From IMG/VR virus record IMGVR_UViG_2693429524_000013: a stretch of 13,512 nt of DNA, one strand, 5' to 3'. Below the pieces are notes generated by a model. It had not been told where the DNA came from, did no database searches, and saw only the letters and a list, made by a program, of their open reading frames with translations. Origin of the DNA: a virus (lineage: Duplodnaviria; Heunggongvirae; Uroviricota; Caudoviricetes). Both the position numbers and the translations under genes were made by a program. Positions 3,460 to 13,512 of the stretch are shown here, piece after piece (the first letter of the stretch is position 1; every line of letters starts with the position of its first letter).

Positions 3460-3787
3460 TTGATCACCTGCGATTTAAATTAACTCCCCTCAAAGAGTTC
3501 CGGTATAACCTCTCAAACCGCGACAGGCTCGGGCCGAAAAGTTATGCCGGAAATCTAAAGGGAAATTGATACAAGGAAAGGGAGATAGCCCCGCACCGTC
3601 CAAGCGGGGGCTATTCCATATGGGGAAAACCAACAACAGTTGGCTGATAGTTCACAGTATGGTTACGGTTACTAGAGAGCACTATCACGAAAGGCACTCC
3701 CCCGAATCAGTTCAGGCTGCGGTCACATCAGCGGGGAAATACCTTTCGGGATAGCTACCCACACAGAAAACCCGCAAAAGAAAACTG

Positions 3788-3943: not shown

Positions 3944-3972
3944 ATTATATCAGTATTTACTCACATTGTCAA
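3944..3972 (-). promoter_or_regulatory. consensus sigma70 promoter reading leftward toward the head module
   Basis: On the minus strand: TTGACA (3972-3967), 17-bp spacer, TATAAT (3949-3944). Both hexamers are perfect consensus. Predicted TSS near 3937, giving a ~480-nt leader before the gene at 3459. Confidence 0.55.
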
Positions 3973-4195
3973 CACCCTGATTATATAAATTCTAATAATT
4001 AGCGTAGTAACGGTATTTTCAGACCTCTATCAATCCCATCAATACGTCACCCCACCCTTTAGACATATACATCTATCACTACTTTATAAAGCCTGATAGA
4101 TATCCGTTGATCCTGATCAAGGTTTTCCGGGGATTTACCCGGTTATAGTTCGAATCAAGGAAGGGGAGCATTGATAGCACCCAAACCGAACAAAC

Positions 4196-4213
4196 AAATC
4201 AACTTCTCGCAAA
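4196..4213 (+). promoter_or_regulatory. recurrent 18-nt leader motif AAATCAACTTCTCGCAAA, copy 1
   Basis: Exact 18-mer also at 4739-4756. In both cases it ends 11 nt before an ATG, with a purine-rich SD in between. Confidence 0.5.
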
Positions 4214-4224
4214 AGGTGATAGTT

Positions 4225-4347
4225 ATGGGTATCAAGAACAGTGCCAGCGCATGGCAAAAGGCCAGGTTTCATCACCCACACATTGTTAAGGCAATTGAGG
4301 TGGTTGGAGTGTTAGCCCTGATGTTAGCTCTGTGTGTGGAGGTGTGA
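4225..4347 (+). CDS. possible small hydrophobic peptide (40 aa)
   Basis: ATG at 4225 with AAGGTGA SD. Preceded 11 nt upstream by the recurrent motif AAATCAACTTCTCGCAAA. C-terminal half is hydrophobic (VVGVLALMLALCVEV). Below the 60-aa cutoff of the ORF track; uncertain. Confidence 0.3.
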   Translation: MGIKNSASAWQKARFHHPHIVKAIEVVGVLALMLALCVEV

Positions 4348-4449
4348 GATGGGCAAAGGAGGCAAAGCATTTTTTAATAGGTCTGGCTATCCTGGATGTT
4401 CTACTAATCATGATTGAGCGGAGTTTATGAACAGCATTGAGAGGAGTTT

Positions 4450-4710
4450 ATGACGGGGGCTAAAGATATCAGGAGACTGAGGGAAGAGCTGATAGCTGAA
4501 ATTAAAGCTAAGGCAAAGCAAATGGAGATAGCCGCACAAATGGATGTAGCGGAACAGATGTACAAGATGGTTGAAGAGGGAACACCACGACAGGTTATCG
4601 CTAAAACCTTCGGTGTGGGGATCGCCACCGTGCACAGAAGGCTGAAAGCCTATGCCGACTACCACAACATTGAGAGAGGGGAGGATGGGAGATTTAAGAA
4701 GAATAAATAG
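4450..4710 (+). CDS. small helix-turn-helix DNA-binding protein (86 aa)
   Basis: ORF 4450..4710 with GAGGAG SD. Segment TPRQVIAKTFGVGIATVHRRLK is a classic HTH pattern. N-terminal part reads as coiled-coil-like. Confidence 0.6.
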   Translation: MTGAKDIRRLREELIAEIKAKAKQMEIAAQMDVAEQMYKMVEEGTPRQVIAKTFGVGIATVHRRLKAYADYHNIERGEDGRFKKNK

Positions 4711-4738
4711 TGTGAACAGTCCAATAGGTTATTAACTT

Positions 4739-4756
4739 AAATCAACTTCTCGCAAA
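4739..4756 (+). promoter_or_regulatory. recurrent 18-nt leader motif, copy 2
   Basis: Identical to 4196-4213. Ends 11 nt before the ATG of the membrane-protein gene (4768). Confidence 0.5.
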
Positions 4757-4767
4757 GGGGTACCACT

Positions 4768-5289
4768 ATGTTATTCCAGAAAGACAAAGAATCAGTAAAT
4801 AAAAGGCTTTTTAAAGAACTGGTAAAAATGTTCTTTCAGTACACTGCAGCGTTTTTGATAGCCGGGCCTTGGTTAATGGCTATCTGTTTTTACCCTGCTA
4901 CCTTGTTTATTGGCAGTAGCAAGTTCGGCGATGGCCCGTTTCATGTGGATATTGGTTTTATAGATTCTCTCCTGATCCGTCCTATAAATGCTGTTCTCAA
5001 TGCTTTCTACTTCCCAACTAGTCTAGAGGGGTGGGCGGTAACCTGGGGTGTTTTAGGCTTAGCATATGTATATTGGTTGGTTGGCTTTTTGTGGGGTGCA
5101 ATCTGTGCTCTCCTCGATATTGATACAGGATCAAGCCGTAGGAGTAGTGGTAATAATAGCGGAGCGGGTGTATATGCACACGTAGGTACCAGAGGGGTAA
5201 GTATCACCGCAGGTACCCGATTCGCTGGCGGCTGGCTGAGTATAGGCAAACGCGGCGTTAGTTGGAGAAAAAGCAAAAAACTGTTCTGA
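4768..5289 (+). CDS. predicted membrane protein (173 aa)
   Basis: ORF 4768..5289. Recurrent motif ends 11 nt before the ATG, followed by AGGGG SD. At least two hydrophobic helices (FFQYTAAFLIAGPWLMAICFYPATLFIG and AVTWGVLGLAYVYWLVGFLWGAICALL) and a Gly/Ser/Arg-rich C-terminal tail. Followed by a strong intrinsic terminator. Confidence 0.6.
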   Translation: MLFQKDKESVNKRLFKELVKMFFQYTAAFLIAGPWLMAICFYPATLFIGSSKFGDGPFHVDIGFIDSLLIRPINAVLNAFYFPTSLEGWAVTWGVLGLAYVYWLVGFLWGAICALLDIDTGSSRRSSGNNSGAGVYAHVGTRGVSITAGTRFAGGWLSIGKRGVSWRKSKKLF

Positions 5290-5296
5290 CCTACCA

Positions 5297-5318
5297 GGGG
5301 GCCATCACGGCCCCTTTT
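5297..5318 (+). terminator. rho-independent terminator after the membrane-protein gene
   Basis: GC-rich 6-bp stem GGGGCC/GGCCCC with 5-nt loop, followed by TTTT (5315-5318). Lies 8 nt past the stop at 5289. Confidence 0.6.
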
Positions 5319-6719: not shown

Positions 6720-6778
6720 ACCTGTTGGGATTTCCCACATGTTCAACCATACACAGGAGCTAACCTGTTGGGATTTCC
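6720..6778. repeat. pair of 16-bp direct repeats ACCTGTTGGGATTTCC
   Basis: Identical 16-mers at 6720-6735 and 6763-6778 (43 bp apart). They share the ACCTGT core with the iterons immediately downstream. Confidence 0.6.
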
Positions 6779-6813
6779 TACAACCCCTTTCAGTCATACT
6801 CAGGCACCACACC

Positions 6814-7054
6814 CCGGTAAATATTTCCCTACTACCCCGGAGAATTTCTCCGCACTACCTGTAAAGAATTTTCACACCTGTGTGTTTATACAATCATACT
6901 CTCCTGTTTTGCAGTCATTGCACCCATGATACACAGCCCTAACCTGTAAAATATTTTTACTACCCCGCCAATAATACGGCCCATACCTGTAAAATATTTT
7001 TACTACTACCTGTCAAAATCTTTTACTACTACCTGTAAAAATATTTGACACTAA
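6814..7054. repeat. iteron array: six direct repeats of a ~21-23 bp unit
   Basis: Copies of CCTGTAAAATATTTTTACTAC-like units start at 6814, 6858, 6953, 6986, 7009 and 7032. The last three are exactly tandem at 23-bp spacing. Same orientation throughout; no ORF. Confidence 0.7.
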
Positions 7055-7316: not shown

Positions 7317-7410
7317 GGGGAGCGTAGTGCGATAGCACGTAGCTATATAATGTGGAGTCCGGATAAGAGACTTCTGTTTCCAATCCGGACCGTTTAAGCG
7401 AGTGGTTTCT

Positions 7411-7436
7411 CGCGCGCGTGCACGCACACATATATA
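7411..7436. other. 26-nt perfect alternating pyrimidine-purine tract (Z-DNA-prone)
   Basis: CGCGCGCGTGCACGCACACATATATA alternates pyrimidine/purine without a break for 26 nt. Read directly from the sequence. Confidence 0.5.
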
Positions 7437-7936: not shown

Positions 7937-7965
7937 TTGACAATCTCGCAAATAGCTGATAAAAT
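7937..7965 (+). promoter_or_regulatory. sigma70 promoter for the plus-strand operon
   Basis: TTGACA (7937-7942), 17-bp spacer, TAAAAT (7960-7965). The -35 sits in an imperfect palindrome GATTGTTGACAATC. About 120 nt upstream of the first gene (8088). Confidence 0.5.
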
Positions 7966-13296: not shown

Positions 13297-13328
13297 AGAA
13301 AAAAGCCCCTAAGTGTTAACAAAGGGGC
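13297..13328 (-). terminator. terminator-like hairpin, minus-strand orientation
   Basis: GCCCCT (13305-13310) / AGGGGC (13323-13328) with 12-nt loop. Preceded on plus strand by a run of six A (13299-13304), so on the minus strand the hairpin is followed by six T. Would terminate a leftward transcript from beyond the window end; could also weakly terminate the tape-measure operon. Confidence 0.35.
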
Positions 13329-13361
13329 TCTTCTCCGGTATCCTTTTGATGCGGGGCAAAA

Positions 13362-13405
13362 CCTGCTAACAAAAATCAACCTCTCGCGAGACTAATGTTA
13401 GCAGG
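13362..13405. repeat. 10-bp inverted repeat enclosing a variant of the recurrent motif
   Basis: CCTGCTAACA (13362-13371) / TGTTAGCAGG (13396-13405) flank a 24-nt loop containing AAATCAACCTCTCGCGAG (13373-13390). The loop itself holds the perfect palindrome TCTCGCGAGA (13382-13391). Confidence 0.5.
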
Positions 13406-13512
13406 TTGCCGGAAGGTAAGTCAACTCCGGTCTATAAACCTTAAAGCGACTATAAAATTGCCCCGCCAATTGTGATGATCCGACCTTTGAGGCGGGTCCG
13501 GTGCCCAGGGGG

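Follow-up and report, generated by a model that had tools for sequence, protein, structure and literature searches.

Known antisense RNAs and the locus described here

Trans-acting small RNAs (sRNAs) of enterobacteria, such as RybB, OmrA/OmrB and MicC, carry their seed at the extreme 5′ end and finish in a Rho-independent terminator. GcvB represses its targets via C/A-rich elements upstream of the Shine-Dalgarno sequence (SD). In the type I toxin-antitoxin pairs tisB/istR-1 and zorO/orzO, the antitoxin is an sRNA that does not overlap the toxin gene. Mobile elements offer further examples. The CI RNA of satellite P4 acts on two repeated targets, seqA and seqC. In P1, the C4 RNA is required for full icd/ant repression (PMC8198154).

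The window analysed here is the whole 13,512-nt stretch of DNA, essentially an entire circular E. coli plasmid of ~13.5 kb. It belongs to a plasmid family that is common in E. coli but undescribed. Its sequence suggests that a trans-acting antisense sRNA probably controls the translation of two genes, one for a 40-aa membrane peptide and one that occupies a swappable cargo slot. Antisense blocking of translation by an sRNA is in itself a well-known mechanism. The relevant features, in window positions, are the following.

4196-4213, plus strand: target site 1, an exact 18-mer with its core CAACTTCTCGC at 4200-4210, in the leader of the 40-aa peptide gene
4225-4347, plus strand: 40-aa ORF (MGIKNSASAWQKARFHHPHIVKAIEVVGVLALMLALCVEV) with a hydrophobic C-terminal segment, the first gene after site 1
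4450-4710, plus strand: 86-aa helix-turn-helix (HTH) protein with a resolvase-type HTH_7 domain (Pfam E 3.5e-6), encoded between the motif copies
4739-4756, plus strand: target site 2, an exact 18-mer with its core at 4743-4753, 11 nt before the cargo ATG
4768-5289, plus strand: cargo gene, 173 aa, membrane-like, in a variable slot with at least five unrelated alleles family-wide
5296-5316, plus strand: terminator-like hairpin AGGGGGCCATCACGGCCCCTT then TTCTATTT, closing the peptide-HTH-cargo operon
13297-13387, minus strand: predicted sRNA of ~91 nt, with the anti-motif GCGAGAGGUUGAUUU (13387-13373) as its 5′ end and an intrinsic terminator as its 3′ end
13298-13335, minus strand: predicted terminator hairpin of the sRNA, GAGAAGAGCCCCUU...AAGGGGCUUUUUUC, taken from the fold with coordinates derived by hand
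13361-13410, no strand assigned: inverted repeat ACCTGCTAACA / TGTTAGCAGGT around the predicted sRNA start, an 11-bp stem in the fold, long allele only
13373-13390, plus strand: third motif copy AAATCAACCTCTCGCGAG, with 3 mismatches to the 18-mer, the template complement of the predicted sRNA seed
13395-13424, minus strand: predicted sigma-70 promoter with a -35 box TTGACT (13424-13419), an 18-nt spacer and a TG-extended -10 box TAACAT (13400-13395)

In its predicted architecture, this locus follows RybB, OmrA/OmrB and MicC: it would have its own promoter, a seed that is single-stranded from +1, and a terminal GC hairpin with a U-tail. The predicted mode of action is also alike, with 11-15 nt of pairing next to the ribosome-binding site (RBS), at a conserved site present in more than one target mRNA. 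Unlike those sRNAs, it is plasmid-borne with its predicted targets on the same plasmid, it shows no sequence or Rfam relationship to them, and its short alleles would measure only ~50-60 nt. As with GcvB, pairing is predicted upstream of the SD and not over it, at site 1 within an A/C-rich leader (AACAAACAAAUCAAC). However, the seed is not rich in G and U as that of GcvB is, and no homology links the two RNAs.

The P1/P7 c4 and P4 CI immunity RNAs (the C4 family of Rfam) are likewise antisense RNAs of a phage, plasmid-prophage or satellite that silence a key operon, as predicted here. They too use two repeated short targets at the RBS or close to it; here, the SDs follow sites 1 and 2 at a distance of 0-4 nt. 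The P1 and P4 RNAs are processed from their targets' own transcript, on the same strand, and adopt a conserved cloverleaf-like fold, whereas the RNA considered here would be read from the opposite strand and from a promoter of its own. The complement of the motif occurs on the minus strand only, and the predicted sRNA gene is separated from its targets by 8.6-9.2 kb along the window, or by 4.3-4.9 kb the other way round the circle. A permissive cmscan of the whole window against Rfam gave no hit at E 0.1 and, unlike for members of that family, no match to the C4 covariance model at E ≤ 1.

The first target recalls tisB/istR-1 and zorO/orzO, in that a gene for a small hydrophobic peptide (<60 aa; 40 aa here) is conserved at the coding level and has a 5′ UTR complementary over 12-20 nt to an sRNA that is predicted to be separately transcribed. 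Several features set it apart from those pairs. A long distance separates the predicted sRNA gene from the peptide gene, an unrelated cargo gene has a second target in front of it, and the hydrophobic segment is C-terminal. The peptide has no family match either (Pfam, PHROG and PADLOC), and it would be a toxin only by analogy. The plasmid carries no partition genes, and a type I toxin-antitoxin role would suit the upkeep of such a small plasmid.

A repeated motif with an 11-nt conserved core

The 18-mer AAATCAACTTCTCGCAAA occurs twice without mismatch on the plus strand, at 4196-4213 and 4739-4756. Each copy is followed 11 nt later by an ATG (4225 and 4768), with an SD-like AGGTGA or GGGG between, just as an earlier, sequence-only reading of the window had described. 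That reading held the recurrence to be beyond chance, and a scan allowing up to 3 mismatches agrees: three matches were found against 0.05 expected, a number reached in 0 of 200 shuffles. The third match, at 13373-13390, is on the same strand as the other two and is identical in all 21 of the long-allele relatives. The palindrome at 13382-13391, which the earlier reading had noticed for its TCTCGC, turns out to be part of this genuine third copy. A candidate fourth copy with 4 mismatches (3477-3494) is absent from the divergent lineages L119, L138 and L140 and was dismissed. The other recurrences of TCTCGC to which the reading had drawn attention do not stand out, since the hexamer occurs at chance level (seven times on both strands against ~6.6 expected by our own arithmetic). 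The one at 7944 (TCTCGCAAA) is found in just 4 of 13 relatives, and the one placed at 7407-7412 actually lies at 7408-7413.

A longer segmental duplication, which the reading had considered as a possible source of the repeat, does not account for it: the repeat is only 18-21 nt long, and the flanks of the copies are unrelated. Comparison of 40 distinct versions of the three sites, from more than 30 relatives, identified the invariant unit as the 11-mer CAAC[T/C]TCTCGC rather than the 18-mer. Ten of its 11 positions are the sole invariant columns across the 40 versions. Each complete element holds exactly three copies, two of them before an SD and ATG and one at the predicted sRNA locus.

The core at site 1 is identical in 12 of 12 distinct versions, including those of L119 and L140 with an unrelated upstream flank. 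At site 2 it is invariant in 23 distinct versions, except for a T/C difference at position 5 in L119. In L140 and L141, the sequence on either side of site 2, and that upstream of site 1, bears no relation to the window. The core is thus retained even where its surroundings on both sides, and the gene after it, have been replaced, and its place beside the SD is kept whatever the flanks. The distance to the start codon is less strict. The 11-nt spacing that the sequence-only reading took to be conserved holds at both sites of the window but not across the family: L119 has spacings of 14 and 12 nt, and at site 2 of L140 nothing separates the SD from the core.

The predicted small-RNA locus

Read on the minus strand, the third copy is framed by a promoter-like and a terminator-like element. 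The sRNA would be transcribed from its own sigma-70 promoter across ~13387-13297 and end at the intrinsic terminator. Its start would fall on, or no more than one nucleotide away from, the leading G of GCGAGA(G/A)GUUGA, a sequence exactly complementary to the core. Both ends are predicted, the start from promoter geometry. We infer from the sequence that this RNA is made and where it ends, along with the sign of its regulation and any dependence on Hfq. The minus-strand RNA of this region folds with a z of -5.2, and U-tracts (T-runs in the DNA) follow the hairpins on the minus strand only, in long and short alleles alike.

The same arrangement recurs where the surrounding DNA does not. Beyond the tape-measure protein (TMP) gene, the DNA of L123 and L136 is non-homologous to that of the window, and L140 and L141 carry a diverged form. 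The short alleles of these two groups are laid out as TTGACT, 17 nt, CACACT, 6 nt, GCGAGAAGTTGA, a GC hairpin and T5. Both groups keep the TTGACT box, and likewise its spacing from the anti-motif. Counting from the -10 box, the first G of the anti-motif is nucleotide 7 in the short alleles and nucleotide 8 in the long one. The RNAs predicted from the short alleles are essentially a seed plus a terminator. The promoter-seed-terminator layout is therefore common to three alleles, the other sequence of which is unrelated or diverged. The -10 boxes (TAACAT and CACACT) are weak, and promoter, start and terminator are consensus predictions. An L123-type sRNA module was absent from complete E. coli genomes and from PLSDB.

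Some further observations concern the same stretch. The predicted sRNA terminators adjoin the TMP stop codon, where some terminator would be expected regardless. The inverted repeat at 13361-13410 is invariant in 21 relatives and missing from the short alleles; its 5′ arm overlaps the -10 box, and an RNA with a 5′ seed does not explain it. A match to ctRNA_p42d on the minus strand (13334-13294, E 0.25) was below threshold and amounts to terminator likeness.

Predicted pairing with the two leaders

Nucleotides 1-11 of the predicted sRNA are complementary to CAACYTCTCGC, and pairing with the leader at site 1 is predicted to extend over 15-20 nt. Across the whole plasmid, the two leader sites are the best non-self partners of the seed, at -27.1 and -26.2 kcal/mol versus -10.0 ± 2.9 kcal/mol. 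Net ΔΔG values for the window sRNA with the two leaders are -14.1 and -16.7 kcal/mol. For all six allele/target pairs, the net cofold gain ranges from -14.0 to -16.8 kcal/mol, with z from -3.2 to -8.0 against shuffled leaders.

Seed and target vary at a single position. The long allele has a seed G opposite the variable T/C, which occurs with T targets and could pair as G:U or G:C, and the seed A of the short alleles co-occurs with T targets only. L119 is the only lineage with a C target; its contig stops ~140 nt (estimated by hand) before the expected sRNA locus, which lies outside the comparison. The T/C difference in the core is compatible with the predicted seed pairing. The core varies too little to show true compensatory co-variation.

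In the mechanism that we propose, the first 11-15 nt of the sRNA would pair with (AAAU)CAACUUCUCGC, directly 5′ of the SD, in both leaders: (i) that of the 40-aa peptide, after which the HTH gene follows; (ii) that of the swappable cargo. Relative to each AUG, the duplex would occupy about -29 to -15, a position within the 30S footprint or at its border, and would most likely prevent the initiation of translation. As a net result, the peptide-HTH-cargo operon would stay quiet in the resident plasmid. Among the functions that the sequence-only reading had put forward, translational control through a shared leader fits the position of the core by the SD, the replacement of its flanks and its complement at the predicted sRNA 5′ end. 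A leader hairpin that sequesters the SD, with activation by unfolding, was also considered and is without support: the leader folds are no better than those of shuffles (z -0.5 and 0.0).

The peptide-HTH-cargo operon

Gene callers annotate the 40-aa ORF in L123, L126, L132, L139 and L141. In L119, its length and frame are kept at 50% amino-acid identity (counted by hand). The AF2 model of the 86-aa HTH protein (pLDDT 84.5) consists of a long helix followed by the HTH, and a fold search returned generic HTH regulators only, none at E ≤ 0.001. Neither Pfam nor the model gives this protein a catalytic domain. A consensus scan detected no sigma-70 promoter for the plus-strand operon, nor any within or adjoining sites 1 and 2.

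The gene behind site 2 swaps among at least five alleles without any change in the position of the site. Their products begin with MLFQKDKE, MNIKTII, MFKGLVV/MFKGIIV (with a lipobox-like LLAC), MKTSTALC and MFFQKDAE, and the cargo alleles have no match in PHROG or PADLOC. The operon thus contains a hot spot in which unrelated membrane or lipoprotein genes are exchanged behind the same regulatory site. If the antisense reading is correct, the likely control point of the plasmid's accessory operon has been identified. It would also provide a compact and easily testable sRNA-target module, in which 11-12 nt of seed act on two targets and of which short alleles of ~50 nt exist naturally.

Alternative explanations

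The motif may act as DNA or as protein-bound RNA instead of through base pairing. A plasmid regulator (a candidate is the 86-aa HTH protein, whose gene lies between copies 1 and 2) could bind the 11-mer as a DNA operator and co-regulate all three places, including the minus-strand promoter at 13395-13424. The third copy lies in a palindrome (TCTCGCGAGA) and overlaps the +1 of that predicted promoter, and conservation of the 11-mer at three places is also expected at the DNA level. We nonetheless consider such an operator unlikely. Sites 1 and 2 are non-palindromic and have no promoter-like site detected beside them, their constant position 0-4 nt from an SD is a constraint at the mRNA level, and the short alleles (TCTCGCC) no longer form the palindrome. 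An operator does not demand that the strand be kept either, nor that the complement of the third copy be the first sequence transcribed before a minus-strand terminator in non-homologous alleles. The kept strand would suit a repressor protein that binds CAACYUCUCGC in the leaders of the mRNA, with the third copy in the TMP 3′ UTR serving as a decoy: all three copies are on the plus strand, two are beside SDs, and the long-allele third copy would sit in a hairpin loop if that strand were transcribed. This is distinctly improbable, given that the ORFs scanned contain no RNA-binding domain and that the structure at the third copy differs by allele, from the loop of an 11-bp stem to a position directly after a hairpin. 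It also leaves the TTGACT box at its fixed distance and the minus-only U-tracts unexplained.

The other proposals give the repeats a role in transcription initiation or in DNA exchange. One option named by the sequence-only reading was a promoter served by a dedicated RNA polymerase or sigma factor. In its favour are the identity of the two 18-nt copies, each equally far from its start codon in the window, and a plus-strand operon for which no sigma-70 promoter was detected. Such a factor would come from the element or from a helper phage, and transcripts would start just before the SD. This suggestion fares badly and we hold it to be very improbable. No polymerase or sigma gene is present among the 16 ORFs scanned (Pfam and/or PHROGs), and a helper is itself conjectural. 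The complete genome of the rV5-like phage MaxTheCat (135 kb), searched with the motif and with its sub-cores, lacks the motif, offering scattered matches with 4-5 mismatches only. An exact 15-mer from the motif is found in 106 IMG/VR stretches; the 80 listed carry one copy each on unrelated contigs, a chance-like pattern. Moreover, just 11 nt are conserved, the spacing to the ATG is variable, site 2 is internal to an operon, and the third copy has no conserved gene downstream at which to point. Hardly any weight goes to the idea that the resolvase-type HTH protein recognises the repeats as sites for cargo-cassette exchange or as a pac site, even though its HTH_7 domain is of that type and the variable cargo is bounded by site 2 on its 5′ side. 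Cassette recombination was rejected because the motif is missing on the 3′ side of the cargo and the 86-aa protein lacks a catalytic domain. Exchange between direct repeats 1 and 2 would remove the peptide and HTH genes, the boundary sequences of L140 differ while the core is unchanged, and neither recombination nor packaging explains why promoter and terminator elements are arranged around the third copy.

The plasmid family

The chief value of the antisense reading is in annotating this family and in providing an entry point to these unstudied E. coli plasmids. The family encodes a capsid protein, the TMP and other tail proteins. Its capsid and tail genes are related to those of rV5-like phages, the lineage closest to the plasmid's tail genes.

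A broader scenario builds on this gene content. The plasmids could be undescribed plasmid-borne phage satellites, with capsid and tail-length proteins of their own, that parasitise virulent rV5-like myoviruses and use the sRNA as a master ‘immunity’ switch. The sRNA would hold the peptide-HTH-cargo operon silent in the resident state. Once a helper infects the cell, read-through arriving convergently from the TMP operon, with perfect complementarity to the sRNA, would either titrate this RNA or disturb its transcription. The HTH regulator would thereby be released and the satellite committed to particle production. We think this scenario quite unlikely as it stands.

Searches beyond the family were negative in the collections covered: neither megablast nor a capsid tblastn against 50,697 phage records gave a match, and no relatives were found in IMG/VR or among GTDB species representatives. 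The matches listed for the TMP are filled by variants at least 92% identical, the capsid family is narrow and comprises 18 clusters at least 82% identical, and the family of the 86-aa HTH protein forms 9 clusters confined to these plasmids.

A conserved core beside two start sites

The 18-mer AAATCAACTTCTCGCAAA, reported by the sequence-only reading to stand 11 nt before two ATGs, is indeed present in exact plus-strand copies at 4196-4213 and 4739-4756. Each copy stops 11 nt short of its start codon (4225; 4768), and the gap contains an SD-like AGGTGA or GGGG. When up to 3 mismatches were allowed, a third plus-strand copy, AAATCAACCTCTCGCGAG, appeared at 13373-13390; 0.05 matches would be expected at this threshold against the three observed, a number seen in 0 of 200 shuffles. 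The repeat spans just 18-21 nt and its flanks are unrelated, so the longer segmental duplication that had been named beforehand as the refuting case is ruled out. Recurrences of the shorter TCTCGC, once read as part of the same signal, are at chance level (7 in the window, where a 6-mer should occur about 6.6 times over the two strands). The copy at 7944 is found in just 4 of 13 relatives, and the one assigned to 7407-7412 truly lies at 7408-7413.

Comparison with relatives narrows the unit under conservation. CAAC[T/C]TCTCGC occurs in exactly three copies per complete element (23 family members, ≤1 mismatch), which in the window are as follows.

4196-4213, plus strand: site 1, before the 40-aa peptide gene
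4739-4756, plus strand: site 2, before the cargo gene (4768-5289)
13373-13390, plus strand: third copy, after the tape-measure protein (TMP) gene

Site 2 stays in place while the cargo behind it varies among at least five unrelated alleles. In L119, a divergent relative (capsid 82% identical), site 1 is unchanged despite a diverged upstream flank, site 2 reads AATACAACCTCTCGCAAA, and the site-to-ATG spacings are 14 and 12 nt. In the relatives L140 and L141, the sequence upstream of site 1 and that on either side of site 2 bear no relation to the window, and the SD follows the core without a gap. Alignment on the core of 40 distinct versions from all three site classes left CAAC.TCTCGC as the sole invariant columns. 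These invariant columns and the varying spacing indicate that the functional unit is an 11-mer 0-4 nt 5′ of the SD rather than an 18-mer with a constant 11-nt spacing.

A predicted small RNA gene at the third copy

On the minus strand, the third copy reads GCGAGAGGUUGAUUU, which complements AAAUCAACUUCUCGC, the T/C position giving a single G:U pair. This anti-motif is accompanied by a predicted promoter.

13424-13419, minus strand: -35 box TTGACT of the predicted sRNA promoter, followed by an 18-nt spacer
13400-13395, minus strand: TG-extended -10 box TAACAT of the same promoter

Downstream of the anti-motif, a long GC-rich hairpin is followed by UUUUUUCUU, and a T-run after this hairpin is present only on the minus strand. 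The 156-nt minus-strand region has a fold z of -5.2; no Rfam family matches the sRNA region.

The strongest argument for a putative sRNA gene is a natural allele replacement that keeps this layout. In L123 and the independent metagenome contig L136, the stretch from the TMP stop to the tail-completion gene has no homology with the window. The same strand nonetheless carries, in the same order, TTGACT, 17 nt, CACACT, tgccag, GCGAGAAGTTGA, GCCCC...GGGGC and TTTTT. A diverged form of this short allele, differing inside the hairpin, is carried by L140 and L141. Past the -10 box, the anti-motif's first G comes at nucleotide 7 in short alleles and at nucleotide 8 in the long allele of the window, so the anti-motif is predicted to form the extreme 5′ end of the RNA in every allele. 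The predicted RNA is about 91 nt long in the window, and short alleles would give one of about 50-60 nt. Their seeds are complementary to TCAACTTCTCGC at every position and co-occur with T-type targets only; the core is too little varied for real co-variation. The -10 boxes of the predicted sRNA promoters are weak.

Around the predicted sRNA start, the long allele has an invariant 11-bp inverted repeat at 13361-13410 (ACCTGCTAACA / TGTTAGCAGGT). Its 5′ arm overlaps the -10 box, and short alleles are without it. The repeat might be an operator of the sRNA promoter; alternatively, it might present the anti-motif in the hairpin loop of a longer transcript from a weaker upstream promoter-like site (13476-13449).

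Pairing with the leaders and competing explanations

The first 22 nt of the predicted window sRNA were scored against every 40-nt window on both strands. Its own complement aside, its best partners are the two leaders, at -27.1 and -26.2 kcal/mol versus a background of -10.0 ± 2.9. Over all six allele/target pairs, net full-length co-folding, with the unfolding of both partners subtracted, ranges from -14.0 to -16.8 kcal/mol, versus -2.2 to -5.2 for shuffled leaders (real-pair z of -3.2 to -8.0). The leaders are no more structured than shuffles, and thus nothing suggests an inhibitory structure for pairing to open. On balance, we think it likely that a predicted trans-acting antisense sRNA explains the motif. 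Its pairing would occupy about -29 to -15 relative to the AUG, immediately 5′ of the SD, in both leaders of the peptide-HTH-cargo operon, and the duplex would most probably block 30S binding; we infer repression from position alone. Among the functions originally proposed, a translational-control site is thus supported by the cores beside the SDs, whereas a promoter is not.

Conservation of an 11-mer would be expected likewise of a DNA operator bound by the 86-aa HTH protein encoded between sites 1 and 2. Such an operator leaves unexplained the constant SD-adjoining position, the constant strand and the order of promoter, seed and terminator that non-homologous alleles share. Short alleles have also lost the palindrome TCTCGCGAGA, and the HTH protein model has generic fold matches only, making this reading unlikely. 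Somewhat more doubtful again is a same-strand RNA operator for a protein: the ORFs scanned include no candidate RNA-binding protein, and the structural setting of the third copy differs between alleles. It is highly improbable that the motif is the promoter of a dedicated polymerase, given that no polymerase or sigma gene is among the 16 ORFs scanned, the motif is absent from the complete rV5-like genome MaxTheCat, IMG/VR 15-mer matches are single copies per contig (80 listed of 106), and the third copy has no conserved gene downstream. A recombination or pac site, for which no site 3′ of the cargo is present, is slightly less credible still.

Functionally, the predicted sRNA resembles 5′-seed, terminator-ended enterobacterial sRNAs. 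In biological role it is also like the CI RNA of satellite P4, an antisense immunity RNA acting on repeated short targets near the RBS. A further likeness in role is to c4 of P1/P7 (PMC8198154), an antisense immunity RNA that also acts on repeated short targets near the RBS. Membership of the C4/CI family was rejected, as there was no covariance-model match. Unlike C4/CI, the predicted sRNA lies on the opposite strand, has its own predicted promoter and is not processed from the target transcript. Some features are shared with type I toxin-antitoxin pairs, but here the genes are far apart. An sRNA with its targets is a known kind of system; the one predicted here sits on an apparently undescribed plasmid family.

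Putative control of a small peptide and variable cargo

The peptide encoded at the first target has 40 aa and is hydrophobic in its C-terminal segment. Coding is conserved (50% identity in L119), so a type I toxin-antitoxin-like role of the peptide and predicted sRNA in plasmid maintenance is possible. The second target shows that the predicted sRNA would also control any cargo placed behind site 2. The TMP operon runs towards the predicted sRNA gene, so that its read-through could, speculatively, counteract the sRNA.

In the variable slot directly behind site 2 (4768-5289; likewise in relatives L005, L006, L119, L138 and L140), at least five alleles occur that are unrelated to each other and 173-239 aa long. 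Membrane segments or N-termini like a signal peptide or lipobox (e.g. MFKGLVVTLLAC) are seen in several. PHROG and PADLOC yielded no family match for any of them; a role in exclusion or defence is possible. At 4413-4453, a tandem 18-nt duplication (ATTGAGCGGAGTTTATGA / ATTGAGAGGAGTTTATGA, 23 nt apart) yields an 8-codon upstream ORF (4427-4453), whose stop overlaps the HTH gene ATG (ATGA), which suggests translational coupling. About 55 nt upstream of site 1, the hairpin CCGGGGATTTACCCGG (4127-4142) is followed by TTATAGTT, and L119 keeps a similar CCGGG...CCCCGG hairpin at the same place. No sigma-70 promoter for the plus-strand operon was found in the window, so this hairpin may act as an attenuator or belong to a promoter that needs an activator.

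The plasmid and its gene content

Judged by its matches, the window is essentially a whole circular plasmid. By megablast, circular, non-mobilizable E. coli plasmids of ~13.2-13.7 kb match it at 89-94% identity over most of their length, no phage record does, and the window's two ends are contiguous in relatives. The genes are arranged on two strands.

Minus strand: tail-completion protein, Dit-like 'tail tube initiator', small ORF, major capsid protein, 111-aa ORF
Plus strand: 40-aa peptide, 86-aa HTH protein, cargo gene, iterons, Rep-like protein, several unknown ORFs, 700-aa tape-measure protein

The tail genes are nearest to those of virulent rV5-like myoviruses (Vequintavirinae), with 51% identity for the Dit-like protein and about 26% for the TMP. 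For the capsid protein, tblastn against 50,697 phage records gave no match. In E. coli the family is common (412 TMP clusters); the 120 clusters listed are ≥92% identical to the query, almost all on ~13.5-kb contigs. A literature search found no paper describing the family, which looks like an undescribed plasmid-borne phage satellite.

One "plasmid" record, L009 (NZ_CP043822.1, 39,610 bp), consists of about three tandem element copies, one degraded. It could be a real multimer or an assembly artefact; if real, it would bear on headful packaging into a larger capsid. Iteron-like direct-repeat arrays at 6720-7050, upstream of the Rep-like operon (ACCTGTTGGGATTTCC twice; TACCTGTAAAATATTTTTAC four to five times at ~43 nt spacing), are a probable replication origin. 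Only one sigma-70 consensus in the window is perfect (TTGACA, 17 nt, TATAAT, with TG; 3944-3972, minus strand); it is directed into the capsid operon. The operon's first start codon (3459) lies ~480 nt downstream, beyond a long leader that holds a GC hairpin (around 3585-3612). Just past the tail-completion gene, a terminator-like minus-strand hairpin at 144-169 (TTCTCGCGATTGGTCCCTTGTGAGAA), with another TCTCGCGA inside it, is kept even in L119. The capsid/tail operon probably ends here, and the region from this hairpin to 13297 would therefore be a separate transcription unit.
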